Shown here: positions 1 to 12,710 of the stretch, in pieces
How the letters are laid out: each line of letters starts with the position of its first letter
Position numbering within the stretch: position 1 is the stretch's first letter
IMG/VR virus record: IMGVR_UViG_3300002460_002611
Direction: 5' to 3' (one strand)
Origin: a virus
Length of the DNA: 12,710 nt
Made by a program: the position numbers and the translations under genes
Notes under the pieces: model-generated
What the model saw: the letters and a program-made list of their open reading frames with translations, nothing else
What the model was told of the DNA's origin: nothing
The model's database searches: none

Positions 1-1440
1 GGCAAGCTGCCCGATGAGTTCGTCCAGGAGTGGGTGAGGAAGGGCGAGGAGTTCATCGCGCTCTGGAACGAGTGCCTGTCGTTCGACCTCGTCGTGCCCT
101 ACCTCATCGACCTGGGCTACGATGAGCCGTTCTTTGGGTCCCTGTCACGTCGCATCATGAAACTGAGGTCGGCTGAGGTCCCGACGGCGGGCGTCTGCGT
201 TGATCGCGGCCAGCTGATGATGCTCTGGAACCCAATCTTCTTCAAGAAGGGTCTCGACGAGTGTCACATCCAGGGCGTCCTGAAGCATGAGCTGTATCAC
301 GTCATCCTGGAGCACATCACCAGCCGGCGTCAGACGCCCCACGTCCTGTGGAACGCGGCCACAGACCTGGCGATTAACTCACTCATCCCGCGGCAGGAGC
401 TGCCTGACTGGTGCCTCCACGCGGGTGAGATGTATAAGCCTGCGAAGGCGCCCCCCGACTGGAAGCCGGGCATCATGGCCCGCATCATCAAGGGGCTGCC
501 CAAGAACCAGAGCTCTGAGTGGTATATGAACCAGTTCCTCATGGACCCTGAGGTGCAGCAGGCCATGGCCAACGCTCGTGCTGCCGCAGGGCAGAGACCC
601 AAGCAGGGTGAGGGCGATGGTGGAGGCGCGGGTGGCCCTGGACAGCCTGGCGATGGTCAGGACGGGGGCCAAAAGAGCAACGACGGTGCATTCGAGGACG
701 AGCTCAGGAGGGAGCTCTATGGTGACGGCGGGGGCCAGTTCGACGACCATGACATCTGGGACAGGCTGACAGAAGAGCAGCGCGACGTGATGCGTGAGCA
801 TGTGCGAGGCCTGTTCAGGGACTGCGTCCGCGAGGCTGAGAGCAACGCAAAGGGCTGGGGCAACATGCCCGACAGCATCAGGGCGCACCTGAGGAAGGTG
901 CTGTCACGTGAGATCGATTGGCGTGACCTGATCAGCAGGTTCGTGGGCAGGTCAACGACGACAAAGACTACGTCGTCCATCAAGCGCGTGAACAGGCGCT
1001 ATCCATGGGACCACCCGGGCAGGAAGCGTGCCCACAGCGCCCGGCCCGTCTTTCTCATGGACCAGAGCGGATCGATGCGTGATGAATGGGTCGAGCTGCT
1101 GTTTGCTGAGGTCAGCAACATGGGCGTCATCACTGAGTATGACATCGTCCCGTTCGACCACACAGTCGATGAGGAGAACGTGCAGAGGGTGCGGAGGGGC
1201 ACGCAGCCCAAGCTTGTGAGGACGAGGTCGGGTGGGACGAACTTCAGCGCTGCGGTCGAATGGGTCAATAAGTGCCCAGGACGTCACGACGTGGCATTTT
1301 TGCTGACGGATGGCGAGTGCTTCTCACCCGTCAAGTGCAACATCCCACTGGCATACATCTTGGCGCCGGGCTGCCAGCTCCACTTTGAGCCCCCCGCCGG
1401 GACGATCGTGATAAACATGACTGACACTCGGAAGGGCTAA
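1..1440 (+). CDS. 5'-partial CDS: putative HExxH zinc-metallopeptidase-like domain (DUF2201_N type) fused to a C-terminal vWA-like domain. Reading frame is open to the window edge, so the true start is probably upstream; first in-frame GTG is at 34.
   Basis: 'HELYHVILEH' (nt 286-315) followed by 'WNAATDLAINS' matches the DUF2201 N-terminal putative metallopeptidase signature. 'VFLMDQSGSM' (nt ~1048-1077) is a vWA MIDAS-like DxSxS motif followed by the 'VPFDHTVD' strand typical of the DUF2201 vWA-like domain. A Gly/Asp-rich linker separates the two halves. No stop codon lies between nt 1 and 34 in frame. Confidence 0.8.
   Translation, partial: GKLPDEFVQEWVRKGEEFIALWNECLSFDLVVPYLIDLGYDEPFFGSLSRRIMKLRSAEVPTAGVCVDRGQLMMLWNPIFFKKGLDECHIQGVLKHELYHVILEHITSRRQTPHVLWNAATDLAINSLIPRQELPDWCLHAGEMYKPAKAPPDWKPGIMARIIKGLPKNQSSEWYMNQFLMDPEVQQAMANARAAAGQRPKQGEGDGGGAGGPGQPGDGQDGGQKSNDGAFEDELRRELYGDGGGQFDDHDIWDRLTEEQRDVMREHVRGLFRDCVREAESNAKGWGNMPDSIRAHLRKVLSREIDWRDLISRFVGRSTTTKTTSSIKRVNRRYPWDHPGRKRAHSARPVFLMDQSGSMRDEWVELLFAEVSNMGVITEYDIVPFDHTVDEENVQRVRRGTQPKLVRTRSGGTNFSAAVEWVNKCPGRHDVAFLLTDGECFSPVKCNIPLAYILAPGCQLHFEPPAGTIVINMTDTRKG
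598..753 (+). repeat. Low-complexity Gly/Asp/Gln-rich coding segment (inter-domain linker) inside the metallopeptidase-vWA CDS
   Basis: Translation 'GQRPKQGEGDGGGAGGPGQPGDGQDGGQKSNDG...YGDGGGQFDD'; the nucleotide sequence is built of ggy/gay codon reiterations. Confidence 0.6.
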
Positions 1441-1445
1441 CAGGC

Positions 1446-1580
1446 ATGTGTGAGTACGTGTACGCAGCATTATTTGCTGCATTCATGGTCGTGATGGTCG
1501 TCGTCGTGCTTGTGCTTGATGTTGTTGAGAGACGCGCAAAGAAGCGAAAGCAAAAGAAACAGGAGAACACGTGGATCTGA
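1446..1580 (+). CDS. Possible small membrane protein (44 aa), below the ORF-track length cutoff: a hydrophobic helix followed by a Lys/Arg-rich tail
   Basis: ATG at 1446, 6 nt after the upstream stop. Translation 'MCEYVYAALFAAFMVVMVVVVLVLDVVERRAKKRKQKKQENTWI*' is a single TM-like segment plus a basic C-terminus (positive-inside). It overlaps the next start (GTG 1571) by 10 nt. Confidence 0.3.
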   Translation: MCEYVYAALFAAFMVVMVVVVLVLDVVERRAKKRKQKKQENTWI

Positions 1581-1864
1581 ACGATGATATCGTCTTCACT
1601 GATGGACAGACGTGGCACCTGGGCGATTTGCTGGTCCTTAAAGCTCACTCAAGACGAAGTAATGTGATAGATGGACATCTTAGAGCTGTTTTGACTGATG
1701 AGCCACTCATTCTCTTGGGCTTCTCTGGAGTAGGAATATGTAGACAGGCACAGTTTATGTCAGCACGCTATGGCCTATGCTGGAGAAACGTCTGGCGAGA
1801 CTTTAGAGACAACGTATCGCTTGTTCAGAGGCTTGACATGAACCCTGGAGCGTTCCATGCTTAG
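1571..1864 (+). CDS. Member of the tandem small-protein paralog family (GDL / GHL / EPLIxLG / GxCWR motifs); GTG start
   Basis: 'GQTWHLGDLLVL...DGHLRAVLTDEPLILLGFSGV...FMSARYGLCWRNVW...VSLVQRLD'. An AGGAG lies 5 nt before the GTG. Confidence 0.7.
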   Translation: MDLNDDIVFTDGQTWHLGDLLVLKAHSRRSNVIDGHLRAVLTDEPLILLGFSGVGICRQAQFMSARYGLCWRNVWRDFRDNVSLVQRLDMNPGAFHA

Positions 1865-1981
1865 GATGGTGCTAAGGGCTGGAGATGCCTTGCTCCTTTC
1901 AGCTGGAAGGGCGATGCTGTGGTGTGCGTTATTCGTGGCCATGGCATGGGCAGAGATCGACGGCCCCAGGAGAGGTGACGA

Positions 1982-2248
1982 ATGATGGGCTTTAGGAACA
2001 GCAACCAGGATGCACGCATCCGCGTGAGGTCAGAGGGGGCGTCGATCGCCGTTGATACGGCATACAGGGACCCGGGGACGCTGCAGGCACGGGCCGATGT
2101 GCGTGAACGTTACGACGTTGAGACGGGGAGGTCATTGACGGGCCTGTCCGTCAGGACAGCAGGAGGCAGGAGCATCCGCTTCACGGGCTCCGAGGCTCGG
2201 ACGCTATATCGCATCCTGGATGAGGCCGTGAACGGTTCGAGGGTGTAA
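1982..2248 (+). CDS. Hypothetical protein (88 aa), no recognisable domain; not an obvious member of the paralog family
   Basis: A 'ggagaggtga' SD sits 4 nt before ATG 1982, and the coding-like composition is continuous with its neighbours. The protein is Arg-rich and shows no motif I recognise. Confidence 0.5.
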   Translation: MMGFRNSNQDARIRVRSEGASIAVDTAYRDPGTLQARADVRERYDVETGRSLTGLSVRTAGGRSIRFTGSEARTLYRILDEAVNGSRV

Positions 2249-2251
2249 CAC

Positions 2252-2518
2252 ATGAGGGCAGCAGAGCTGTGTCCGGGCGGCCTGTGTAGCAGCTCTGCTG
2301 TCTCTGTGATAGACTCACAGGGTAGAACCCATCTCTTCTCTGACGACAAACCGTTGTGGACAGCGTTGTTCATCAGACGTTATCACGTTAAGTGGGGGTT
2401 GGTCGGTCCGTATGAAGAGTTTCTGTTCATCTCGCCCCAACTCGGGGTGATGAAGGTGACCACAACAAGCCTGCAATATATCATGTTTGTCCAATCGCTA
2501 GACGATTGTGTGGAGTGA
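2252..2518 (+). CDS. Hypothetical protein, possibly a divergent member of the paralog family
   Basis: Starts 3 nt after the previous stop. The C-terminus 'YIMFVQSLDD' resembles the family tail 'LTLVSSLD / VSLVQRLD'. Weak 'PGGLCS', 'QGRTHL' and 'PLWTALFI' segments echo the GDL, GHL and EPLIFLG motifs. Confidence 0.45.
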   Translation: MRAAELCPGGLCSSSAVSVIDSQGRTHLFSDDKPLWTALFIRRYHVKWGLVGPYEEFLFISPQLGVMKVTTTSLQYIMFVQSLDDCVE

Positions 2519-2523
2519 ATGCA

Positions 2524-2832
2524 ATGCTGCTTGACCTCCCTTCTACGCTCATCCCAGGCGCCCTCTATGCCCTAGAGGGTGAGATTGGGCTCACAACAGA
2601 GACCACGCCCCGAGGAAGGTCTCAGCACTTGCTGTTACGTATTGGTGCGATACGTCATGCATCGGTAGGACAAGTGGAACCGCTGGTCTTTATCAAGACT
2701 ACGTTGGCTGGAAAGAACGCGCCAGGCATGTCAATGCACTGGTTCATGTCGAGGCTGGGTCCGTGCTACAGGAACACGCTCCCTACGAGCCTTTATCTCG
2801 TGCAGGAGGTCGCTGATGCCGACAGTGAATGA
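2524..2832 (+). CDS. Member of the paralog family. The ORF track starts at TTG 2506; ATG 2524 is preferred, with GGAG 8 nt upstream.
   Basis: 'LIPGALYAL...EPLVFIKT...FMSRLGPCYRN'. The 3' end overlaps the next gene's start. Confidence 0.65.
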   Translation: MLLDLPSTLIPGALYALEGEIGLTTETTPRGRSQHLLLRIGAIRHASVGQVEPLVFIKTTLAGKNAPGMSMHWFMSRLGPCYRNTLPTSLYLVQEVADADSE

Positions 2833-3898
2833 GATTGAGAGAAGGTTTCTTGTGAAGGAGATCGATCTCAAGCATCGTGCACTCAAGGACAACAACGTCT
2901 GGAACGGGTGTGAGGTCCATCTCACGCAGGGCTACCTTGACATCCCGGGCAGCATGCGCGTGAGGTCATACACGTTCAGGGGCACGGGCCTCCAGAGGCA
3001 TGAGCTGACGAGGAAGACGGGCAAGGGCCTCCTTCGGGTTGAGCAGAATGCAGACATCTCTGCCGAGGCTGCGCAGATGCTGCTGGGCTCGACGCCCTTC
3101 ACGATCAGCAAGACGCGCCGCATGTGTGATGGGTGGGAGGTTGACTTCTTCCACGGGCGGCTTGAGGGCCTCATCATGGCAGAGAAGGAGCTCCAGCATC
3201 CCGACGAGCCTTGTCCCATTCCGCCCTGGATAGCAGATGCTGTTGAGGTGACAGACTTCATCAGCAACAAACAGCTCGCCCGAGCCGCGTTCCTGCTGTC
3301 ATCTGATGAGCCTCTCTCTATCCTTGATGCGCGTCGTCTCAGGCGCGTGGTCCTGACGGGTGCACCGTGCTCGGGCAAGAGCGCGTTCGTGGAGCAGTTC
3401 AGGGGGACGCCTGGGTTCCATTGTGTGCCAGAGGTTGCGACGATTGTCATGGGGCAGCTCAATGTCATGCCCGAGTCAGGAGCAGCAAGCTTCCAGCGGA
3501 CGCTCTACCGCATGCAGCACCTGTTCGAGGACGCTGCTGAGGTCCAGGCCCAAAGGGACGGCAACGGGACAGTGGTCATCGACAGAGGGTCGCTCGATGG
3601 GGCCGCCTTCATGCCGGGAGGGCTGGATGAATACACAACCCTCGTTCAGACAGACGCTCTGTCGGAGCTCGGCAGGTATGACGCTGTCATCTTCCTCAGG
3701 CTGCCCCCGCGTGATGTGTGGGAGAGGAACAGGGCGAACAATGCAATCAGGCGTGAGACGTGGGAGCAGGCCCTCGTGCTTGAGGAGAGGCTGCTTGATG
3801 TGTGGTCCAGGCATCCCAACCTCATCGTTGTCGGAGGCAGGCCCACGTGGGAGGAGAGGTTCGCTGACATCATTGGACATGTCAGCTGCAGGTTGTAG
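2816..3898 (+). CDS. Two-domain enzyme: N-terminal CYTH / triphosphate-tunnel metalloenzyme domain fused to a C-terminal P-loop kinase of the NadR-AAA_28 / uridine-kinase-like type
   Basis: The N-terminus 'VNEIERRFLVKEID' is the ExExK CYTH signature (nt 2831-2854). Walker A 'VVLTGAPCSGKSAF' lies at nt ~3352-3390, followed by 'VPEVAT' and an 'IDRGSLDGAAF' region typical of NadR-type nucleoside kinases. AGGAGG sits 6 nt before ATG 2816. Confidence 0.8.
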   Translation: MPTVNEIERRFLVKEIDLKHRALKDNNVWNGCEVHLTQGYLDIPGSMRVRSYTFRGTGLQRHELTRKTGKGLLRVEQNADISAEAAQMLLGSTPFTISKTRRMCDGWEVDFFHGRLEGLIMAEKELQHPDEPCPIPPWIADAVEVTDFISNKQLARAAFLLSSDEPLSILDARRLRRVVLTGAPCSGKSAFVEQFRGTPGFHCVPEVATIVMGQLNVMPESGAASFQRTLYRMQHLFEDAAEVQAQRDGNGTVVIDRGSLDGAAFMPGGLDEYTTLVQTDALSELGRYDAVIFLRLPPRDVWERNRANNAIRRETWEQALVLEERLLDVWSRHPNLIVVGGRPTWEERFADIIGHVSCRL

Positions 3899-3907
3899 GA
3901 GCGTCAG

Positions 3908-4192
3908 ATGAATGAGAAGTTTGATGTGGGAGACCTTGTCGGCATAGTGGGTGTCAGCTACAACGGGCTGTCTGACGACGGACACCTCCTGAATGGAGGA
4001 TACTGCGATGTGGGTTGCCAGTGCGGCGCCTCGCCACCCGCACACCACATGCTTCTGCTATACATGGGCAGCGACTACAACTACAAGCATTTCGAATCTA
4101 TCCATTGGTTCCTGACGCAGACGGGGGAGCGCTGCTGGCGATACTCGACAGAGCACCTCATACTCGTGTCATCACATGATGGGATGCTATGA
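3908..4192 (+). CDS. Paralog family member, Cys-rich-insert subgroup
   Basis: 'FDVGDLVGIVGV...DGHLLNGGYCDVGCQCG...HHMLLLYMG...WFLTQTGERCWRY...LILVSSHD'. AGGAG lies 6 nt upstream, and the next gene starts by ATGA overlap. Confidence 0.75.
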   Translation: MNEKFDVGDLVGIVGVSYNGLSDDGHLLNGGYCDVGCQCGASPPAHHMLLLYMGSDYNYKHFESIHWFLTQTGERCWRYSTEHLILVSSHDGML

Positions 4193-4461
4193 CGTTGGGC
4201 TTGGGCGTAGAGATGCAGCCCGGTGACCTCGTGGGTCTCGCTGGCGTCAGGACAGTCTCATTGCAGACAGATGGGTGGTTGTCTAACTGTAAGATGTGTG
4301 TGGGATCGTGTGGATGCTGGTCGGGGCAGCCGCATGTGTGGTTGCTGTATCTGGAGCGTAAAGGATACTGTAATTACTTCCTGACATCTGCGGGCTCAAT
4401 CTGCTTCCGCTACGGAAGCAGGCGTGAGTATGTCGTGGTCTCCAGAGACAGGATATTGTGA
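4189..4461 (+). CDS. Paralog family member, Cys-rich-insert subgroup
   Basis: 'QPGDLVGLAGV...DGWLSNCKMCVGSCGCW...VWLLYLE...YFLTSAGSICFRYG'. ATGA overlaps at both ends. Confidence 0.75.
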   Translation: MTLGLGVEMQPGDLVGLAGVRTVSLQTDGWLSNCKMCVGSCGCWSGQPHVWLLYLERKGYCNYFLTSAGSICFRYGSRREYVVVSRDRIL

Positions 4462-4751
4462 TGACGAAAAGTGCTGCAGACATCAAGTCGGGAGACCTTG
4501 TGGGTGTGAGATCGGGGAGCATGTTTGAGCTGGACCCAGAAGGGCACCTGATGAATGGGTTCTGTTCAAGGGTTGGCTGCACGTGCCACCATGAAGAGGG
4601 TGGGGTGGTGCACATGCTGTTGCTCTACATGGGCCCTAGCACTCACATTGCCGATGTTTCGGGTCCAGTCCATACGTTCCTGATGCCGACAGGACAGGCA
4701 TGCTGGCGCTACGGATACAACAACCTGACGCTGGTCTCATCGTTGGACTAG
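4458..4751 (+). CDS. Paralog family member, Cys-rich-insert subgroup
   Basis: 'KSGDLVGVRSG...EGHLMNGFCSRVGCTCHH...VHMLLLYMG...FLMPTGQACWRYG...LTLVSSLD'. Confidence 0.75.
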   Translation: MMTKSAADIKSGDLVGVRSGSMFELDPEGHLMNGFCSRVGCTCHHEEGGVVHMLLLYMGPSTHIADVSGPVHTFLMPTGQACWRYGYNNLTLVSSLD

Positions 4752-4752
4752 G

Positions 4753-5148
4753 ATGTTCGCCCTTACTGGGACGCTACGTTACGACATCATGCTGGGCTAC
4801 GGACACAGGCTCGTCGTTGATGTTGAAAGGGACGTCGCGAGGTTCTATGCAGCATTGGTCCCAAGGAGCGTGGGCATCAGGTCGCAACGCTATGCGCCCC
4901 ATGTGACAGTCGTCAGGCTTGAGACGCCCAGCATGATGTCTGCATGGGGCATGAGGCAGGGCCAGCGTGTGAGCATGTGGTATGACCCGTACGTCTACAA
5001 CGACGAGAGGTATTACTGGCTTCGCGTGCACTCAGATGAGCTTCTTGACGTCAGGAAGGAGCTCGGGCTGCCATCATCGAGCAGGTTGAGCAGGCCGCCT
5101 GACGGCGTCGAGTGCTTCCACATGACGATAGGGAACACAAAGCCATGA
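4753..5148 (+). CDS. Small 2H-phosphoesterase-superfamily protein (LigT / cyclic phosphodiesterase / Acb1-like), 131 aa
   Basis: Two H-x-T-x motifs flanked by hydrophobics with typical spacing: 'APHVTVVRL' (His50, nt 4900-4902) and 'ECFHMTIGN' (His123, nt 5119-5121). It starts 2 nt after the upstream stop and ends in an ATGA overlap with the next gene. Confidence 0.7.
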   Translation: MFALTGTLRYDIMLGYGHRLVVDVERDVARFYAALVPRSVGIRSQRYAPHVTVVRLETPSMMSAWGMRQGQRVSMWYDPYVYNDERYYWLRVHSDELLDVRKELGLPSSSRLSRPPDGVECFHMTIGNTKP

Positions 5149-5477
5149 GCAAAAGAGAGAAGCTGAGGCTTGCGCAGCTGGTCCAGGGCGACCTGCTGCA
5201 GCTGCGTTGCTACGATGCATCACGACTAGAGATCGGTGACAACGAAGGTCACCTGTGCGGAGACATCTACGATCCTGAACGTCATGACCTCTTCGACGCC
5301 AAGCGCTTCGACAGGTGCACCGCACTCGTCCCGTTCATCTACCTGGGTCCTCATGATGTCAAGCATTCCAACACAGCAGCCAGGCTCCTGTCACCCACAC
5401 ACGGTGTCTGCTGGCGTTATGTGTGCCATGCCCTAGAGCTGGCGCAGCCCGTGTCAGCGTGTGAGGAGGACCAGTGA
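5145..5477 (+). CDS. Paralog family member. The ORF track start is GTG 5112; ATG 5145 is preferred because it forms an ATGA overlap with the 2H gene stop.
   Basis: 'LVQGDLLQL...EGHLCGD...VPFIYLGP...LLSPTHGVCWRYV'. Confidence 0.7.
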   Translation: MSKREKLRLAQLVQGDLLQLRCYDASRLEIGDNEGHLCGDIYDPERHDLFDAKRFDRCTALVPFIYLGPHDVKHSNTAARLLSPTHGVCWRYVCHALELAQPVSACEEDQ

Positions 5478-5478
5478 C

Positions 5479-5802
5479 ATGCATATGAATGAGCTACACA
5501 ACTACAAGAGCCCGACGGGTGAGGTCTGGAACGCGGGTGACCTGTGTGCGCTCACGATCACTGGCCCATTTTCTCTACGTGTAGAAGTTGAATACGTGAC
5601 CCAGGGTCACCTTATCGGGGCCACTGGTGGCTTGGATGAGCCCCTCATCTTCTTGGGTGTGTCATACAACGATGACTACAGCCGCTTGATCGCGTATCTC
5701 TTGTCTTTTAGGTTCGGTGCGTGTTGGAGGTTTGTGTGGTCCGACCAGACGGGTGGGTTGAAGCGTGTCCAGCAGCTGCAGCCTGATGTGTCGTCGCAGT
5801 GA
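5479..5802 (+). CDS. Paralog family member. The track start is GTG 5461; ATG 5479 is preferred, with AGGAGGA 8 nt upstream and 2 nt after the upstream stop.
   Basis: 'GEVWNAGDLCAL...QGHLIGATGGLDEPLIFLGV...LLSFRFGACWRFVW'. Confidence 0.7.
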   Translation: MHMNELHNYKSPTGEVWNAGDLCALTITGPFSLRVEVEYVTQGHLIGATGGLDEPLIFLGVSYNDDYSRLIAYLLSFRFGACWRFVWSDQTGGLKRVQQLQPDVSSQ

Positions 5803-5825
5803 GTGAAGGCCGAGGAGAACGTAAC

Positions 5826-6131
5826 ATGGACAGCCTCATATGCAACGGAGAGACATGGGCGGTCGGTGACATGTGCAGCTATGATGGTAGAAATGCCTTA
5901 GGCCAGTTTTGCATCGACCAACACAACAGCTGGTATCCCAACCACCTGCTAGGCAGGCCTGCTATCCCAGAGCCCCTCATCCTCATGGCGATAGAGCGGC
6001 ATGAGATACTCACGGCTGCACACGTCGTGTGGTTCATGTCTGTGACGTTCGGGCTGTGTTGGCGCTTGGTGTGGCCGGATGATGCAGACGATGTCGTGCT
6101 ATGTCAGAAGCAGTCTGAGACTGCACCATGA
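5826..6131 (+). CDS. Paralog family member. The track start is GTG 5799; ATG 5826 is preferred, with GAGGAG 8 nt upstream.
   Basis: 'GETWAVGDMCSY...NHLLGRPAIPEPLILMAI...WFMSVTFGLCWRLVW'. Confidence 0.7.
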   Translation: MDSLICNGETWAVGDMCSYDGRNALGQFCIDQHNSWYPNHLLGRPAIPEPLILMAIERHEILTAAHVVWFMSVTFGLCWRLVWPDDADDVVLCQKQSETAP

Positions 6132-6463
6132 TGGTGCCCAGGCTTGAACAGTTCCTGCAATCACGTGATGAGACGTGGCATGCAGGCGACCTGTGCGCGT
6201 TTGTGGAAGTGCACGGTGTGGACCTCACGCCGTATGTGGATGAAGAAGGTCACCTCCTTGGCAGTCCTATTGAGCCCATGCCCCTCATCTTTCTGGGCGT
6301 CTGTTGGTCAGAGAACAGAGAATACAGGAAGGTATGGTTCATATCGCCCGTGCACGGTCCCTGCTATAGAATCATCAATGACGCATCAAGGGGTCGGGTG
6401 CATCATGTGAGTCGGGCGCAGACGATCGCTAGCGTCACAAGGAGCATGCATCATGACACATGA
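6128..6463 (+). CDS. Paralog family member (ATGA overlap with the upstream gene)
   Basis: 'DETWHAGDLCAF...EGHLLGSPIEPMPLIFLGV...WFISPVHGPCYRI'. Confidence 0.7.
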   Translation: MMVPRLEQFLQSRDETWHAGDLCAFVEVHGVDLTPYVDEEGHLLGSPIEPMPLIFLGVCWSENREYRKVWFISPVHGPCYRIINDASRGRVHHVSRAQTIASVTRSMHHDT

Positions 6464-6710
6464 TATGCCTCTTCCGGGCGACCTGCTTATGTTCGCCACG
6501 AGCAATTGGTCAGTGCCTGACATGAGGCCCAACGGTTTCCTCTATGCCCGCCATACGTTGACATCGAACAATCAGCTAGCTGATTGCTTTGAGCCAGTCA
6601 TGATGCTATGTGACGAGGAGACGACGGGTCGCGTTCACCTGCTATCTGCTAGGTTTGGTCTGTGCTGGTGGTGGCGAGATTGGCTATTGTATCGTCATGT
6701 CGGCGCCTAG
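6453..6710 (+). CDS. Paralog family member (11-nt overlap with the upstream gene; alternative ATG at 6465)
   Basis: 'LPGDLLMF...NGFLYAR...EPVMMLCDEE...HLLSARFGLCWWW'. AAGGAG lies 8 nt before ATG 6453. Confidence 0.65.
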   Translation: MTHDMPLPGDLLMFATSNWSVPDMRPNGFLYARHTLTSNNQLADCFEPVMMLCDEETTGRVHLLSARFGLCWWWRDWLLYRHVGA

Positions 6711-6740
6711 CCTGGCTCATTGGGGTGCAGCCACTTAGAG

Positions 6741-6762
6741 CAGCTGGTGACAGCTGGTGACA
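6741..6762. repeat. Perfect tandem duplication of the 10-mer 'cagctggtga' (2 copies plus 'ca') in the only sizeable intergenic gap inside the paralog array
   Basis: 'cagctggtgacagctggtgaca' read directly from the sequence; it lies just upstream of, or overlapping, the start of the 6757/6766 gene. Confidence 0.6.
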
Positions 6763-6765
6763 TAC

Positions 6766-7083
6766 ATGGGTGATAAGCTACAGCCGGGTGCCCTGCTTGC
6801 GTTAGTCATGAAGCCTGGGTTCATGCCCGCTGCGACAGATGACGGGCAGCTGTATGCACAGGGGCTCATAGGTCTAGCTGCGCCGTGGTTGCAGAGGCAC
6901 GTTGAGCCTATGATCCTGCTTGGCCGTGAGCTGATCCAGTCGCGTGTATCTTATAAGCTCATGCTGCTGTCAGCTAGTCTAGGCCCATGCTGGTGTTGGA
7001 ACTTGGTATTGAGTGATGATGACATATTTTCATGTCGCCTCATCGTGGTGAGAGCCCATCCAGGTGGAGCAACTAATGGATGA
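6766..7083 (+). CDS. Paralog family member (the track start is GTG 6757; ATG 6766 is equally plausible)
   Basis: 'QPGALLAL...DGQLYAQ...EPMILLGREL...LLSASLGPCWCWN'. Confidence 0.65.
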   Translation: MGDKLQPGALLALVMKPGFMPAATDDGQLYAQGLIGLAAPWLQRHVEPMILLGRELIQSRVSYKLMLLSASLGPCWCWNLVLSDDDIFSCRLIVVRAHPGGATNG

Positions 7084-7336
7084 CATCAACCTGGATGGCT
7101 GCATCATTGAGGCGGGCGACCTTCTGGCGTTCAATGCTCCCGCGTGTGTGGAGGACGACCAGCTCCTGCATGATACTTCTTTTGGTGTGTATGTGACAGA
7201 GCTGCTTATCTACGTGGGCGCTGAGAGGTTCCCAGGAAAACCAGACTCGAGGTTCTGGTTCCTGTCCATCAGGTTCGGCCTGTGCTTCAAATGGACGAAC
7301 AGCTACCTGACGTTGGTGCAGCGAAGGGGATGGTGA
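7076..7336 (+). CDS. Paralog family member. The track start is GTG 7064; ATG 7076 is preferred, with GGTGGAG 6 nt upstream.
   Basis: 'IEAGDLLAF...DDQLLHD...ELLIYVGAER...WFLSIRFGLCFKW...YLTLVQRRGW'. Confidence 0.7.
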   Translation: MDDINLDGCIIEAGDLLAFNAPACVEDDQLLHDTSFGVYVTELLIYVGAERFPGKPDSRFWFLSIRFGLCFKWTNSYLTLVQRRGW

Positions 7337-7445: not shown

Positions 7446-10097
7446 ATGGAATTGAGCGACAATCGAACACAGAACGAACTTGTTCTCTCGCCAGGTGAAT
7501 TTGCATTGAGCCAGGACACCACATCAGGCATCCTGAAGTGCATCACAGGCCCTGGGATTTTGCAAATTACTGGGCAGGAAACGCCCGTAGCGTTTGACCC
7601 AAAGACGGGTCGCTTTGCTCGCTGTGATCTGGCTACAGCTGTCCAGCAGTTTGCGCTTGCGAAGCAGGGCCAATATATGGTCCTTTCAAATCCGGCGCAG
7701 AACGGAAAGCAACCTGTCGTCAAGGAGAAGAGCGCAGCCGCTGAGCTCAACATGGGTCAGAAGGTCAACATCCAGGGACCCATCACGTTTGCACTGTGGC
7801 CCGGCCAGAGCGCGACAGTGATTGAGGGCCACAACCTCAGGTCGAACCAATACCTTCGTATCCGTGTCTACGATGAGGATGCTGCTCGTGAGAACTGGAC
7901 GAAGGGTGTCGTGAAGGCTGCGCAGATCGCCGGTGGCGCGTCTGATGATGCTGACGCTGGAAAGGGAAAGGCGCAGACAAAGGGACACACTCAAAAGGGC
8001 CTCTTTGAGGCAGTGCCTGGTGACCTTGCTGTGGGTAAGCACTACATCGTTCGAGGCGATGAGTTCTCGTTCTACATCCCGCCGACAGGCGTCGAGGTCG
8101 TCACGGATGACAACGGGTCCTACGTTCGTGATGCCACCACCCTTGAGCGCCTTGAGTATTGCATCCTGATCGATGAGAACGGGAGCAAGCGCTACGAGCA
8201 GGGACCTAAGGTCGTCTTTCCGACGCCGACGGAGAGGTTCTTCGAGGAGCAGGAGAAGGGGCAGCGCATCTGCTCGTTCAAGCCCATTGAGCTGAATGAG
8301 ATACAGGGACTACACGTCAAGGTCATCTCTGACTACGCTGAGGCTGACGGGACCCAGCGGAAGGAGGGTGAGGAGCTCTTCATCAGGGGGTCTGAGACGC
8401 CCATCTACTTTCCGCGGCCTGAGCATGCTCCTGTGAAGTATGATGGGAAGTTCAAGCACTTCGCCACGGCTGTCCCGGCGGGTGAGGCTCGCTACGTCCT
8501 GGAGAGGAAGACGGGCGCGATCAGGACCGTCAAGGGACCCTGCATGCTACTTCCTGACCCTCGGACCGAGGTGATCGTCAGGCGTGTCCTCAGCGACAAG
8601 CAGTGCAACCTGTGGTATCCTGGCAACCTGGAGGCGCAGCGTTACAACTCAACGTTGCGTGAGCTGATGCGTGTCACGCCCACGACGAGGCCCTCCGGGA
8701 CCGTCTCTGAGGGAGAGGTGACGAGGTCGAAGAAGGTCAAGCAGAGCACGTACGGGAACGTCTCTGGGTTCGCCGACAGCAGCCTCATCAGCTCTGACAG
8801 CGCGCTCTTTGGAACCGACGAGTTCAGCAGGGGCAGCACCTACACTGAGCCTAGGACCGTCACGCTTGACACCAAGTTCGGGGGCGTGCCCACGATCGAG
8901 GTCTGGACGGGATACGCTGTCCTCATCATCGACAAGCAGGGGAACAGGCGCGTTGAGATCGGGCCCAAGACAATTCAGCTTGAGTACGATGAGCAGCTCG
9001 AGGTCCTGTCGATGAGCACGGGCAAGCCGAAGAACACGGACCAGCTTGTGCAGACGGTCTACCTGCGCGTAAAGAACAACCAGATCGGTGATGTTGTGAC
9101 GGCTGAGACGCGGGACCATGTCAACGTCTCCTTCAAGGTCTCCCTCAGGGGTGACTTTACGGATGAGCCAGGGCGCTGGTTTGAGTGTGAGAACTACGTC
9201 AAGCTGGTGTGCGACCACGTCAGGTCGGTCCTCAAGGCCGAGGTCAGGAAGCTGAAGGTGGAGGAGATATACAGCGACCCGACGTCGATCGTGAGGGACG
9301 CCATCCTGGGTGCTCGCGGTGGTGAGGACGTCTCACGACGGGGCATGCTGTTCGATGAGAACGGGTTCCACATCCTCGATGTTGAGGTCCTCGACTTCAA
9401 GGTGGGCGATGACCGCATCGCACAGATGCTTGACAACACTCAGCACAGTGTGGTTGAGTCAAACATCAGCCTTGCCCTGGCGGAGAAGAAGCTTGAGATC
9501 GACAGGCGACAGGAGGAGATCGACAGGGAGCGCGTCCAGCTCAAGACTGAGACTGAGCGCCTCAATGCGACGACGAAGGCTGACCTCGATAGGTTCAACG
9601 TGGACCTTGAGACCGAGAGGGTTGCTCGCCACCTGAAGCTGTCGTTGGACCGCATCTCGTCGCAGATCGACGAGACGACGAAGAGGGAGGAGATGCAGGC
9701 CGTTGAGCAACGCCTCCTTGATGAGAAGCAGGGGGCTGAGCTGGCGCGGCAGAAGAAGGACGCTGACGTCAGGAGCAGCATCGACCGCGTCATCCAGGAG
9801 CTGGAGCTCGCCCGGTCACGGGAGGAGACTGAGCACGTCATCCAGAGGTTCCAGGCTGCCAACGGACCCCTCGCAGAGGCGCTGCTGGCCCTGGGCAACC
9901 AGGACACGGTCGTCAAGCTCGCTGAGGCCCTGAGCGTCCAGAGCTTCATCGGGGGCAAGACGGTCGTCGATGTGGTGCAGAAGGTCTTCGCTGGATCGCC
10001 CGCAGCGGGTCTCGTTGAAAAGGCGCTGCAACGGGCGCTCCCTGCCTCCGTCGAGGCGAACGGAGCATCGGGAGGCACCAAGCGGGCTTCTGCGTAG
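7446..10097 (+). CDS. MVP: Major vault protein (MVP) homologue, full length (883 aa): N-terminal MVP repeats, SPFH-like shoulder, long cap-helix coiled coil and cap-ring region
   Basis: Length and architecture match eukaryotic MVP (~890 aa). Collinear motif matches to human MVP as I recall it: 'LEVLSMSTGKPK' vs 'FTVLSLSAGRPK'; 'VVTAETRDHV' vs 'VITIETADHA'; N-terminal 'LSPGEFALSQDTTSGILKCITGPGILQITGQE' vs '[31 protein letters not shown]'; shoulder 'FHILDVEVLDFKVGDDRIAQMLDNTQHSVVESN' vs '[33 protein letters not shown]'. This is followed by a charged heptad-like region, 'LAEKKLEIDRRQEEIDRERVQLKTETERL...', in the cap-helix position. AAGGAGG precedes the start (ATG 7446, or TTG 7452 with better spacing). 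Confidence 0.85.
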   Translation: MELSDNRTQNELVLSPGEFALSQDTTSGILKCITGPGILQITGQETPVAFDPKTGRFARCDLATAVQQFALAKQGQYMVLSNPAQNGKQPVVKEKSAAAELNMGQKVNIQGPITFALWPGQSATVIEGHNLRSNQYLRIRVYDEDAARENWTKGVVKAAQIAGGASDDADAGKGKAQTKGHTQKGLFEAVPGDLAVGKHYIVRGDEFSFYIPPTGVEVVTDDNGSYVRDATTLERLEYCILIDENGSKRYEQGPKVVFPTPTERFFEEQEKGQRICSFKPIELNEIQGLHVKVISDYAEADGTQRKEGEELFIRGSETPIYFPRPEHAPVKYDGKFKHFATAVPAGEARYVLERKTGAIRTVKGPCMLLPDPRTEVIVRRVLSDKQCNLWYPGNLEAQRYNSTLRELMRVTPTTRPSGTVSEGEVTRSKKVKQSTYGNVSGFADSSLISSDSALFGTDEFSRGSTYTEPRTVTLDTKFGGVPTIEVWTGYAVLIIDKQGNRRVEIGPKTIQLEYDEQLEVLSMSTGKPKNTDQLVQTVYLRVKNNQIGDVVTAETRDHVNVSFKVSLRGDFTDEPGRWFECENYVKLVCDHVRSVLKAEVRKLKVEEIYSDPTSIVRDAILGARGGEDVSRRGMLFDENGFHILDVEVLDFKVGDDRIAQMLDNTQHSVVESNISLALAEKKLEIDRRQEEIDRERVQLKTETERLNATTKADLDRFNVDLETERVARHLKLSLDRISSQIDETTKREEMQAVEQRLLDEKQGAELARQKKDADVRSSIDRVIQELELARSREETEHVIQRFQAANGPLAEALLALGNQDTVVKLAEALSVQSFIGGKTVVDVVQKVFAGSPAAGLVEKALQRALPASVEANGASGGTKRASA

Positions 10098-10119: not shown

Positions 10120-10181
10120 GGCGTGAGGGTCCTCACGCCGGTGTGGGATGGGGCATCATCTTCATGGGTGGTGCCCCATCC
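10120..10181 (+). terminator. Two consecutive GC-rich hairpins immediately downstream of the MVP stop; candidate transcription terminator or RNA structure (no clean U-tract)
   Basis: Hairpin 1: 'ggcgtgagg' (10120-10128) / 'cctcacgcc' (10131-10139) are perfect reverse complements with a tiny loop. Hairpin 2: 'ggatggggca' (10146-10155) / 'tgccccatcc' (10172-10181) form a perfect 10-bp stem with a 16-nt loop, followed by 'gtgtattctgtg'. Confidence 0.3.
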
Positions 10182-10222: not shown

Positions 10223-10567
10223 ATGGGACTAAACGTGGGAGATGCTGTGCGGCCTGTCGTGGCCCTTGAGCTGAGGGAGCTTGAGGACGTCTACGGAAAG
10301 GCATTCAACCAGGCCATCCCAGGACGCTCAAAGAAGAACGTGACACGTGATGGTCACACGTTCCTTGACGGCTACCTGGGCATCTACCTCGGACCCAAGT
10401 ATCGTCAGATGCGTGACAGGCGGGGCGATGCGGGCTGGGTGCACAGGCTATTCCACTGCTTTCTGTTCGGGGGCGTGGAGGTGATGATAGATCCGCAGCA
10501 CATAGAGCTCGTAGCTGTCGAGCAGGCAGAGACAAGCGCAGACGATCCAACCGACGAGGAGGACTGA
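10223..10567 (+). CDS. Hypothetical protein (114 aa), acidic C-terminus; possibly a very divergent relative of the paralog family
   Basis: N-terminal 'GLNVGDAV' resembles the 'LNVGDLL' start of the truncated family member at 12513. 'DGHTFLDGYLGIYLGPKY' loosely echoes the GHL / LIFLG motifs. It ends in a TGATG overlap with the next gene. Confidence 0.5.
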   Translation: MGLNVGDAVRPVVALELRELEDVYGKAFNQAIPGRSKKNVTRDGHTFLDGYLGIYLGPKYRQMRDRRGDAGWVHRLFHCFLFGGVEVMIDPQHIELVAVEQAETSADDPTDEED

Positions 10568-11397: not shown

Positions 11398-12304
11398 GGC
11401 AAATCTCTTACGCACATTTCTGCATCAAGCGGCATAGTTATGATGCATGAAAAGAAAAGGTCGTTCTGACCAAAGGAAGTATCACTTCACATACAAGACA
11501 ACATGCCTTGTAACAGGAAAGTACTACTACGGCATGCATAGCACAGACAAGATGGACGATGACTATCTGGGTTCAGGACAGATCCTTCGCTACTCAGTGA
11601 AGAAATACGGACCTGAGAATCACGTACGTGAGGTGTTACAGCTGTTCTCTGATAGAGCATCGCTCATCCAAGGTGAGAAGGAGCTTGTGACAGAGAGTGT
11701 GGCTGCAGGACCCATGTGTATGAACATGTGCGCAGGAGGTGCGACATCAAGGGGTGGTCCTCGACAGAAGAGACCCTACAAGCCTAGGGGACCCATGCCC
11801 GAGGAGACGAGGCTTAAAATATCACTATCGAATATGGGAAAGAAGCACAGCAAAGCCACGAGACGAAAGATGTCGAAGGCCAAGCTGGGAAAGACGTGGA
11901 CTTGGAACAAACCGATGTCAGATGAGCAGAAGAAGCAGATATCGGATACGTTGAAGGGCAAGAAGCTCTCTCCCTGGAACAAGGGGATAAAGATGGGTCC
12001 TCTATCTGATGAACAAAAGCAGAAACTTTCAATGTCCTTGAAGGGAAAAAACAAGGGCAAGAAGATGTCTGACGCGCAGAAAGAGCTTCTACGCCAGATC
12101 AATCTAGGAAAGAAGCACACTGCGGAAGCTAAGGCTAGGATGTCAGCTTCAAAAAAAGGGAAGAAAAAACCACCTCGCTCAGCTGAGCATTGTAAGAACA
12201 TGTCTGAGGCGCATAAGGGAAAAGTCCTATCAGAAGAACATAAGCGAAACATCAGTGAAGGTATGAAGATAGCCTGTGCTAAAAAGAAACAAGAGAGTAA
12301 GTGA
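11398..12304 (+). mobile_element. Probable homing-endonuclease gene insertion (compositionally distinct cassette) between the RadA-like gene and a paralog-family gene
   Basis: The AT-rich 49-nt leader (11398-11446) and the HEG ORF have a codon and GC profile clearly different from the flanks (many AAA/AAG/AGA/ATA codons), typical of a laterally mobile HEG. Confidence 0.6.
11447..12304 (+). CDS. GIY-YIG homing endonuclease with C-terminal array of NUMOD3 DNA-binding repeats (free-standing HEG)
   Basis: N-terminal 'KYHFTYKTTCLVTGKYYYGMHSTDKMDDDYLGSGQILRYSVKKYGPENHVREVLQLFSDRASLIQGEKELV' matches the GIY...YIG / conserved-Glu layout of T4 Seg / I-TevI-like enzymes. The C-terminal half has at least 6 reiterations of 'S/HxEQKxKIS.xxKGKK' (NUMOD3). 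GC content is markedly lower than in neighbouring genes. Confidence 0.85.
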   Translation: MKRKGRSDQRKYHFTYKTTCLVTGKYYYGMHSTDKMDDDYLGSGQILRYSVKKYGPENHVREVLQLFSDRASLIQGEKELVTESVAAGPMCMNMCAGGATSRGGPRQKRPYKPRGPMPEETRLKISLSNMGKKHSKATRRKMSKAKLGKTWTWNKPMSDEQKKQISDTLKGKKLSPWNKGIKMGPLSDEQKQKLSMSLKGKNKGKKMSDAQKELLRQINLGKKHTAEAKARMSASKKGKKKPPRSAEHCKNMSEAHKGKVLSEEHKRNISEGMKIACAKKKQESK

Positions 12305-12510
12305 CATCGCAGCTTAAATTGCGCCAGGTGCGCACGGGTGACCTCATTGAGATCGTCGAGGGTAGGCCTGAGTTGGTCCTGTCTGATTGCCTGACGAGTT
12401 CAGACAATTACATGCATGTCCTGTGGGGTGACGGCACACAGAGGACCTGGTATACAAGCGAGATCGTGTGTCGTCGCATCCTTGCCCGTGCTGAGGACAT
12501 GGAGCCTTGA
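12301..12510 (+). CDS. Hypothetical small protein (69 aa), start uncertain (GTG 12301 / TTG 12319 / GTG 12328); KOW/SH3-like N-terminal 'TGDLIEIVEG' motif
   Basis: Starts overlapping the HEG stop. 'VRTGDLIEIVEGRPELVLSD' resembles the N-terminal motif of the paralog family but lacks the C-terminal CWR motif. Confidence 0.45.
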   Translation: MTSQLKLRQVRTGDLIEIVEGRPELVLSDCLTSSDNYMHVLWGDGTQRTWYTSEIVCRRILARAEDMEP

Positions 12511-12512
12511 CG

Positions 12513-12710
12513 ATGAATGACCTCAACGTGGGCGACCTGCTGTCTCTGACGTACTTTGAGCTGCCCGTGCTCGTTGTCTGTGCATCGCCCCTGCGCGTGC
12601 TCCATGCTGATCGACGCTGTGAGGAGCTGTATCGAGGTCGCTTTGTGAAGATGCGCTGGCCTGACCGCAGGCTGGCGACAGCTGACGACTTCTGGCAGGA
12701 GGAGATGGAT
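12513..12710 (+). CDS. 3'-truncated CDS (runs off the window end); another member of the paralog family
   Basis: ATG at 12513, 2 nt after the upstream stop. Translation 'MNDLNVGDLLSLTYFELPVLVVCASPLRVLHADRRCEELYRGRFVKMRWPDRRLATADDFWQEEMD' with no stop before nt 12710. The 'VGDLLSL' N-terminal motif matches the family. Confidence 0.55.
   Translation, partial: MNDLNVGDLLSLTYFELPVLVVCASPLRVLHADRRCEELYRGRFVKMRWPDRRLATADDFWQEEMD

Follow-up and report, generated by a model that had tools for sequence, protein, structure and literature searches.

A tandem array of highly diverged small proteins with a predicted SH3-like fold beside a major vault protein homolog: a probable large phage from groundwater

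Small paralogs in tandem form one family

The window analyzed here is a stretch of 12,710 nucleotides from a virus, IMG/VR virus record IMGVR_UViG_3300002460_002611. Positions 1571-7336 encode 12, probably 13, old and highly diverged tandem paralogs of ~85-120 amino acids (aa), which are cytoplasmic and mostly acidic. The paralogs constitute a new orphan sequence family, referred to as family 1; its fold and evolutionary kind are already known. All members are predicted to share one SH3-like small β-barrel scaffold. Our preferred reading of their function, to which we give a probability of about 40%, is that they are a battery of small protein-binding modules aimed at host targets.

All-against-all BLASTP joins the small open reading frames (ORFs) in one network, with the best pair scoring 61.6 bits at 45% identity. 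Pairwise identity among the 12-13 tandem paralogs is 18-45%. A hidden Markov model (HMM) built from 11 ORFs recovers 2506-2832 with E = 2e-4, and the next of the 248 six-frame ORFs of the window has E = 0.33. When each ORF was compared with an HMM of the other 11 members, all 12 ORFs scored 16.3-48.2 bits; the best of 200 shuffled versions of the tested sequence reached, depending on the ORF, 2.5-10.7 bits. The original prediction of this family, made from the sequence alone, had suggested a shuffled-sequence control, and by this control the motif similarity is statistically supported for 12 ORFs.

The members are listed below with their leave-one-out scores. Orthologs are taken from L007, a diverged relative represented by a 44-kb Logan contig that is syntenic with the window.

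1571..1864, + strand: member 1, 97 aa; 45.5 bits; ortholog L007 5768-6088, 47% identity
2252..2518, + strand: probable degenerate 13th member, 88 aa, without the invariant Cys (FLFISPQLGVMKV)
2506..2832, + strand: member, 108 aa from TTG 2506 or 102 aa from ATG 2524 (the metagenome record call); 16.3 bits, shuffle maximum 5.7; ortholog L007 7046-7348
3908..4192, + strand: member of the CCCH-insert clade, 94 aa; 47.6 bits
4189..4461, + strand: member of the CCCH-insert clade, 90 aa, ATGA overlap with the upstream gene; 22.0 bits; ortholog L007 8742-9032, 49% identity
4458..4751, + strand: member of the CCCH-insert clade, 97 aa, gene calls start at ATG 4461; 46.8 bits; 45% identity to 3908
5112..5477, + strand: member with the longest β5-β6 insert, 121 aa from GTG 5112 or 110 aa from ATG 5145; 27.2 bits; ortholog L007 9691-9999, 53% identity
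5461..5802, + strand: member, 113 aa (107 aa from ATG 5479); 48.2 bits; reciprocal best hit L007 10001-10315
5799..6131, + strand: member, 110 aa (101 aa from ATG 5826); 35.1 bits; no L007 counterpart
6128..6463, + strand: member, 111 aa; 47.4 bits; no L007 counterpart
6453..6710, + strand: member, 85 aa; 18.3 bits, shuffle maximum 7.3; strain variant P0006 has a C-terminal extension (102 aa)
6757..7083, + strand: member, 108 aa, gene calls start at ATG 6766; 32.9 bits
7064..7336, + strand: last member, 90 aa (86 aa from ATG 7076); 32.1 bits; ortholog L007 10613-10879

The four-motif set described in the original prediction holds across 22 sequences from two genomes. Two residues are invariant in all 22, the glycine of GDL and the cysteine of GxCW[RK]. 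The cysteine is followed by an aromatic residue and then usually by Arg or Lys (Arg in 16 of 22). The same sequences are dominated by the motifs D-L, G-H-L (DGHL), E-P-L-I-x-L-G, (W)FLS and LxLVQ; the histidine of DGHL is present in 11 of 21 sequences. The isoelectric point (pI) lies between 4.4 and 6.9 for 20 of the 22 proteins. At the DNA level, repeats within the array are matches of 17-21 nt found at motif codons only. This confinement points to old duplications, and to neither a DNA-level tandem repeat nor recent gene conversion.

The product of 2252-2518 fails against the family HMM (E = 20). However, a profile of this protein and its ortholog aligns with the family profile over 75 colinear columns with an hhalign score of 23.9, compared with a mean of 10.4 and a maximum of 17.9 in 150 column shuffles. 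It is also of the right size and in register within the array. It is therefore probably a degenerate 13th member in which the cysteine has been replaced by methionine. Of the 13 consecutive paralogs originally proposed, 12 pass the HMM and shuffle control, and this one stands only as a probable, degenerate member.

Two outliers, at 10223 and 12513, had also been assigned to the family, and both are rejected. The hhalign score of 10223-10567 (13.5) is equalled or beaten by 19 of 150 shuffles. The ORF 12507-12710, together with 12301-12510, belongs to a separate tandem family of ~70-aa proteins (fam2, described below).

A distant family member lies beyond the window, 7.8 kb upstream of the array. 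This 120-aa gene (2168-2530 in L001, a record whose DNA is 99.99% identical to the window) matches the family profile with an hhalign probability of 90% and a score of 37.1, compared with a shuffle maximum of 21.4. It carries PGDL, NGHV and EPLLFM, is missing the cysteine, and has strain variants with an 8-aa insertion (P0023).

Database searches bear out the earlier description of the family as unrecognized. In Pfam, no family matches any of the 12 members with E < 0.01; the best are SMN_YG-box (E = 0.019) and SH3_CYT4 (E = 0.34), with one member each. Matches in PHROGs v4 are weak (best E = 0.11), each limited to a single member. PADLOC-DB contains no defence family matching with E ≤ 1, and no match was found among PDB sequences. 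Neither megablast of the whole window nor tblastn of one member detected a match in 50,697 phage records. A HMMER search of 1.84 billion cluster representatives returned 20 proteins, of which 18 are genuine and all come from the window's phage or L007. The other two, P0018 and P0019, are giant repeat proteins that reach their scores by adding up motif matches below 10 bits, and we treat them as spurious. Two word-indexed homolog searches retrieved only strain variants and proteins of the L007 lineage. The array is thus a local expansion in a viral genome, as originally proposed, with the paralogs limited to two related lineages and varying in copy number.

Predicted fold

AlphaFold models were obtained for two members. 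Model 1 (1571..1864) has a predicted local distance difference test (pLDDT) score of 85 and contains nine β-strands. Model 2 (3908..4192) has a pLDDT of 82.7, with a Cys-rich insert at residues ~31-48 modeled at 55-69. The models are compact all-β barrels that superpose on SH3, Tudor or KOW, and thus fall in the SH3-like small β-barrel class. The original prediction had seen a KOW/SH3-type hairpin in the N-terminal motif. As judged from the models, the likeness holds at the level of the fold and covers the whole protein, beyond the N-terminal hairpin.

The conserved motifs (xPGDL, DGHL, EPLIxLG, WFLS, GxCWR, and LxLVQ) fall on predicted strands. The conserved aromatic residues, the W/F preceding LS and the W following the cysteine, sit in these strand motifs. 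Variable columns are located in the segment between strands 3 and 5, the β5-β6 insert (0-30 aa), the β6-β7 turn, and both tails.

In one clade, the β5-β6 insert carries the pattern C-x3-4-C-x-C-x5-9-H. The pattern is present in all five clade members (3908, 4189, 4458, and L007 8464 and 8742) and nowhere else. It is plausibly a putative zinc knuckle, in a loop modeled at low confidence.

Family 1 has no sequence-profile match to the SH3, Tudor, KOW, BAH core, ribosomal L19, or PsaE/NdhS folds. It differs from known SH3-like folds in its extra strands (nine, giving a BAH-like size), its unique motif set, and its invariant cysteine. In addition, family 1 proteins stand alone and are not parts of larger proteins. 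A Foldseek search of BFVD gave no match below E = 0.04.

Divergence, turnover, and strain variation

Family members share 34-56% identity with their L007 orthologs, with a nonsynonymous divergence (dN) of 0.33-0.67 and a ratio of nonsynonymous to synonymous divergence (omega) of 0.19-0.43. The seven conserved genes that interleave with or flank the array share 73-91% identity with their L007 counterparts (dN 0.05-0.18, omega 0.07-0.21). Six of these are 79-91% identical with dN of 0.05-0.13, and the gene at 10223 (hyp10223) is the outlier at 73%. The nonsynonymous rate of the members is 4-10 times that of the interleaved genes. When eight ortholog pairs are pooled, the motif columns are 69% identical with omega of 0.15, and the non-motif columns 31% identical with omega of 0.45. 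The scaffold is thus under purifying selection, while the rest evolves much faster. The diversifying selection invoked in the original prediction is supported only in part: nonsynonymous change is 4-10 times faster in the members, but their omega stays at 0.19-0.43 and nowhere exceeds 1.

The synonymous divergence (dS) of family genes between the window and L007 is 1.1-2.2, roughly double the 0.7-1.0 of the conserved genes interleaved with them. The raised value could be a saturation artefact of the Nei-Gojobori (NG86) estimate at high dN, or could mean that array alleles have been replaced through recombination with more distant phages.

A tree and reciprocal best hits define eight one-to-one positional ortholog pairs between the window and L007. 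Window members 5799, 6128 and one of 6453/6757 lack an L007 counterpart, and L007 6763 and 9029 lack a clear counterpart in the window. Judged from these sequences, the unmatched copies on both sides reflect birth-and-death turnover. A differing copy number in a related genome, which the original prediction had proposed to look for, is therefore found in the gains and losses between the window and L007. Fewer copies initially seemed to be present in L001, owing to gaps in gene calling; all 12 ORFs are intact in its DNA.

Strain variants 99.0-99.8% identical to the window differ within the array mainly in its 3′ copies (5799-7064), and members 1571-4458 are invariant. Single-nucleotide polymorphisms (SNPs) number 7 synonymous and 8 nonsynonymous in 5799, 0 and 8 in 6128, and 13 and 15 in 6757. 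In addition, strains L003 and L004 carry a 3-nt insertion or deletion (indel) in 6128, and L003 a 1-nt indel in 6757. The L003 copy of 6757 is frameshifted, and its HMM match is split over two frames. None of the 12 ORFs is disrupted in the window or in the strains examined other than L003. Outside the family, strain differences are also found in two neighboring genes, encoding a DUF2201/VWA protein (mostly synonymous) and a 2H-type phosphoesterase candidate.

Gene neighborhood

All sizeable genes of the window are on the + strand. The features around and within the array are as follows.

34..1440, + strand: DUF2201 metallopeptidase and VWA protein; Pfam DUF2201_N E = 3.5e-18; cut by the window start, 532 aa in L001
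1982..2248, + strand: hyp1982, a basic protein (pI 10.6), not a member; 87% identity in L007, no family signal
2816..3898, + strand: CYTH domain fused to an AAA_28 (NadR-type) P-loop kinase, not a member; AAA_28 E = 4e-21, CYTH E = 3e-4
4753..5148, + strand: candidate 2H-type phosphoesterase, not a member; Pfam 2H-SAK E = 6e-4 (below the gathering score), phrog_12204 E = 5e-17
7446..10097, + strand: major vault protein (MVP) homolog, 883 aa; MVP_shoulder E = 1e-18, Vault_3 E = 2e-10; 91% identity in L007
10146..10181, + strand: hairpin with a 16-bp stem (9 G-C pairs) and a 4-nt loop, 49 nt past the MVP stop codon
10567..11397, + strand: RadA/KaiC-like ATPase, from Pfam
11447..12304, + strand: NUMOD3 homing-endonuclease-like protein, 285 aa, between the ATPase and the fam2 array
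12301-12510 and 12507-12710 (running past the window end): fam2, also at L013 10001-12490, L007 14974-20121 and L020 120-810

Upstream of the window are a MoxR-type ATPase (AAA_5/phrog_1297; L001 5428-6648), the partner of the DUF2201/VWA protein, and genes for a sigma-70 factor and an HSP20 protein. A T4 Rnl1-type RNA ligase is encoded ~4.5 kb downstream of the window (L013 14959-16143). Compared with L007, the CYTH-kinase is 80% identical with omega of 0.13 and the 2H candidate 79% identical. Scanning metagenomes with the CYTH-kinase brought up no relatives. The P-loop kinase (in the CYTH fusion), the 2H phosphoesterase, and the Rnl1-type ligase are separate genes within ~15 kb, and we take them to represent the same three activities as the fungal and plant tRNA ligase Trl1. 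AAA_28 is also the type of the NadR ribosylnicotinamide kinase, and from the sequence an NAD-related role is equally possible. Searches for an RNA partner (tRNA-like, Y, or vault RNAs) gave nothing with ARAGORN and a single chance-level match with Rfam.

The NUMOD3 gene is absent at the matching site of L007 (14923-14974), which has one elsewhere (1525-2400); this is a mobile gene whose presence at a site is polymorphic. At 1446-1580 and 1857-1985, two mini-ORFs encoding hydrophobic products of 42-44 aa are called in metagenome records but are not conserved in L007, where the genes flanking these sites carry N-terminal extensions instead. These mini-ORFs may be spurious calls or specific to one lineage.

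Over the 11.9 kb that the two have in common, the window matches an 18.7-kb ENA groundwater metagenome contig at 100% identity, and it is 99.99% identical to a stretch of a 128-kb scaffold (ERZ28563591 scaffold_174). The closest relatives of its enzymes in phage records are from jumbo or huge phages (LR7565xx, RaK2, phage G, AR9) and 190-kb Vibrio phages. These homologs, the homing endonucleases, and the array of small ORFs on one strand suggest that the element is a probable large phage, uncultivated and from groundwater. No phage structural genes were seen in the 31 kb examined.

The genes of the array are tightly spaced. Five junctions are 4-nt ATGA/GTGA overlaps, and most others, with gene-caller starts, are overlaps of 1-17 nt or gaps of 1-55 nt. 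If translation began at the longest-ORF starts, 5112 and 7064, overlaps of 37 and 20 nt would result; a start at ATG 5145 would instead give an ATGA overlap with the stop codon of the 2H gene. Shine-Dalgarno-like purine runs precede many starts. A scan of the + strand detected no convincing terminator within the array, and promoter-like sites show no excess over shuffle expectation. The hairpin at 10146-10181, the sole strong one detected on the + strand, is the strongest terminator-like element in the window and is likely the end of the transcription unit. From this arrangement, the genes from VWA to MVP could plausibly be transcribed as one unit. The operon organization claimed in the original prediction agrees with the spacing and the five overlaps, and co-expression is deduced from that spacing alone.

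A variable slot in MVP loci

The phage MVP is 38-47% identical to homologs in the huge-phage records LR756500, LR756501 and LR756503 and in IMG/VR contigs. Two MVPs of gut phages were presented in a 2023 preprint as the first viral ones reported (10.1101/2023.11.10.566534). MVP homologs are common in environmental contigs, with at least 528 loci confirmed in one metagenome scan.

The window, L007, and a more distant MVP locus, L019 (4254-15634; MVP 57% identity), share a conserved gene order: MoxR, DUF2201/VWA peptidase, hyp1982, MVP, hyp10223, and RadA/KaiC-like ATPase. The homologs of hyp1982 adjoin MVP in L019 (63% identity) and in another locus, L020 (74%), and are thus conserved with MVP across lineages. 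In L019 the interval from VWA to MVP is only 2.5 kb. It contains no family 1, kinase or 2H gene, and is occupied by an HNH endonuclease and small ORFs unrelated to family 1 or fam2. In L020 (MVP 65% identity), three small fam2-type proteins lie between hyp1982 and MVP. Judging by the contents of the slot in L019 and L020, an otherwise conserved module has a variable slot that is filled here with lineage-specific genes, namely the array, the kinase and the 2H gene.

Family 1 is present in none of the ~85 other loci with MVP homologs that were examined (5 phage or viral and 80 metagenomic). The original prediction had named cargo families among the possible roles. The absence from these loci speaks against a cargo family tied to the vault protein, and L019 keeps the MVP synteny without family 1.

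A second tandem family

Proteins of fam2 are ~65-85 aa long and contain an N-terminal xPGD[LMI][ILV] hairpin and a later 'DG...W' motif. At least 6 copies lie downstream in the window's phage and at least 14 in L007, and the 3 copies of L020 are just upstream of MVP. Like family 1, fam2 has an N-terminal xPGD[LMI] hairpin, is expanded in tandem, and differs greatly in copy number between relatives. Unlike family 1, it is shorter and lacks the EPLIxLG, FLS and GxCWR motifs. The two families align only over 15 N-terminal columns, with an hhalign score of 21.2 (column-shuffle maximum 12.8) and a probability of 16-28%. The match exceeds the shuffles but is too short to make fam2 part of family 1, and on this alignment their common ancestry is unproven.

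Discussion

If the paralogs are protein-binding modules, each would recognize its own target, one that changes rapidly and does not belong to the conserved machinery of the phage, most likely a host defence or host-takeover protein. Members would act as inhibitors or decoys, binding through variable loops on a constant barrel. They would be expressed together with phage enzymes of counter-defence and RNA-end-repair type. Duplication, divergence and loss of copies would follow the repertoire of the host. External targets are suggested by the rates of divergence, since binding to conserved phage partners (MVP, VWA, kinase, 2H, and ATPase, 79-91% identical) would be expected to slow the divergence of the members (34-56%). 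We also count in favor of this reading the variability of the slot, the birth-and-death turnover, the strain hot spots, the variability of the loops, and a neighborhood of conflict- and repair-type genes that includes the Rnl1-type ligase.

Several observations weigh on the other side. Omega is below 1 wherever measured, including the non-motif columns (0.45), and positive selection is not demonstrated; with dS near saturation, relaxed constraint could explain the fast evolution without an arms race. A pure scaffold model leaves the invariant cysteine and the following W-R unexplained. An adaptor role for the kinase and the 2H protein would fit the tight interleaving with their genes equally well. 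In addition, the family is known from only two lineages, which gives low comparative power.

The leading alternative, which we consider rather unlikely, is that the paralogs are specificity adaptors or cofactors. They would bring clients to the CYTH-kinase, 2H and Rnl1 enzymes or to the MoxR-VWA-peptidase chaperone, or enter the MVP lumen as cargo or cargo adaptors. The members are indeed packed tightly among the kinase and 2H genes, between VWA and MVP, and one would overlap the 2H gene by ATGA if it starts at ATG 5145. SH3-like folds frequently serve as adaptors, and the slot beside MVP in L020 holds other small barrel-type proteins. However, the ~85 other MVP loci do without the family, and L019 retains MoxR, VWA, MVP and KaiC in its absence. 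Moreover, every phage protein that could be a partner evolves 4-10 times more slowly than the members, and single copies are lost or frameshifted in close strains.

It is unlikely that the members bind nucleic acids or the host expression machinery, as Tudor, KOW, CarD-RID and L19 barrels do, docking on RNA polymerase, ribosomes or RNAs and redirecting host expression. The low pI of 20 of the 22 proteins argues against general nucleic-acid binding.

A largely neutral expansion, in which duplicates drift and decay with no distinct function for each copy, appears improbable. Omega is above that of the neighboring genes, one strain has a frameshifted copy, 2252 is degenerate and without the cysteine, and copies are lost in the relative. 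Nevertheless, the 12 ORFs are intact in the window and in the examined strains other than L003, the glycine and the cysteine are invariant in 22 of 22 sequences, and eight positional ortholog pairs persist past dS > 1 with a motif omega of 0.15. Phage genomes also purge useless DNA.

A comparably improbable proposal takes the VWA-to-MVP interval as an exchangeable payload slot of a phage vault-like system. Family 1 and, in L020, fam2 would then be interchangeable cargo or client adaptors for the MVP shell, or else a battery of inhibitors of host toxins that target RNA, working alongside a split Trl1-like RNA repair set. In the former case, SH3-like adaptors may load different proteins or RNAs into the shell; the repair set may consist of the P-loop kinase, 2H phosphoesterase and Rnl1 ligase. 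If true, either version would offer a first way into the function of vault proteins in prokaryotes or viruses.

That the members are small enzymes or covalent acceptors using the cysteine of GxCW[RK] is very improbable. The cysteine is present in 22 of 22 sequences and is followed by an aromatic and usually Arg or Lys, a constancy not usually seen in a family that evolves this fast if the residue serves structure alone. However, no second catalytic residue is conserved (the DGHL histidine occurs in 11 of 21), the fold matches are binding domains, neither structure nor sequence matches Cys-dependent enzymes such as YkuD-type transpeptidases, and both 2252 and the distant L001 2168 lack the cysteine. 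A YkuD-like 'GC[IV]R' catalytic motif was rejected because of the lack of a conserved histidine and of a fold match, and the different spacing.

Among known systems, polyimmunity loci (SUKH, Imm) have reportedly been described by Zhang, Iyer and Aravind as tandem, divergent cytoplasmic paralogs that inhibit nuclease or RNase toxins, and some immunity-family proteins are said by the same authors to have been recruited by viruses. Family 1 resembles these loci as a tandem array of small, highly divergent cytoplasmic paralogs, but is located in a phage accessory slot rather than a toxin cassette. No toxin gene is found beside the array among the Pfam-identified neighbors in the window, and Pfam gives no Imm or SUKH match.

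Nip of Bacillus phage phi3T, which has predicted SH3-like domains, neutralizes and complexes the defence NADase SpbK (PMC11984713). The mechanism is of the type that we infer for family 1. In contrast to the tandem array, Nip is the 279-aa product of one gene and combines two SH3-like domains with an HU-like dimerization domain, and no sequence relation between Nip and family 1 was detected. Bacillus phage G contains ~35 copies of a zinc ribbon, a lineage-specific expansion of a small domain (Iyer et al. 2021, PMC7824862). As with family 1, many small-domain paralogs are found in one lineage, in a large phage genome with a MoxR and VWA-metallopeptidase pair. The fold and family are different, however, and the family 1 array is contiguous and interleaved with enzymes. 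Roles in transcription or DNA binding have been proposed for the zinc ribbons of phage G (PMC7824862), whereas family 1 proteins are acidic.

If the copies were merely drifting duplicates, the array would be one more lineage-specific expansion in large phages. Its signature, a constant barrel with hypervariable loops, turnover and SNP hot spots, resembles that of phage counter-defence or host-takeover binders, which makes the members concrete candidates for synthesis and screening against defence libraries. By its position, the array also shows where an otherwise conserved module of MoxR, VWA peptidase, MVP and RadA/KaiC-like ATPase is variable, and thereby bears on the role of phage vault homologs.

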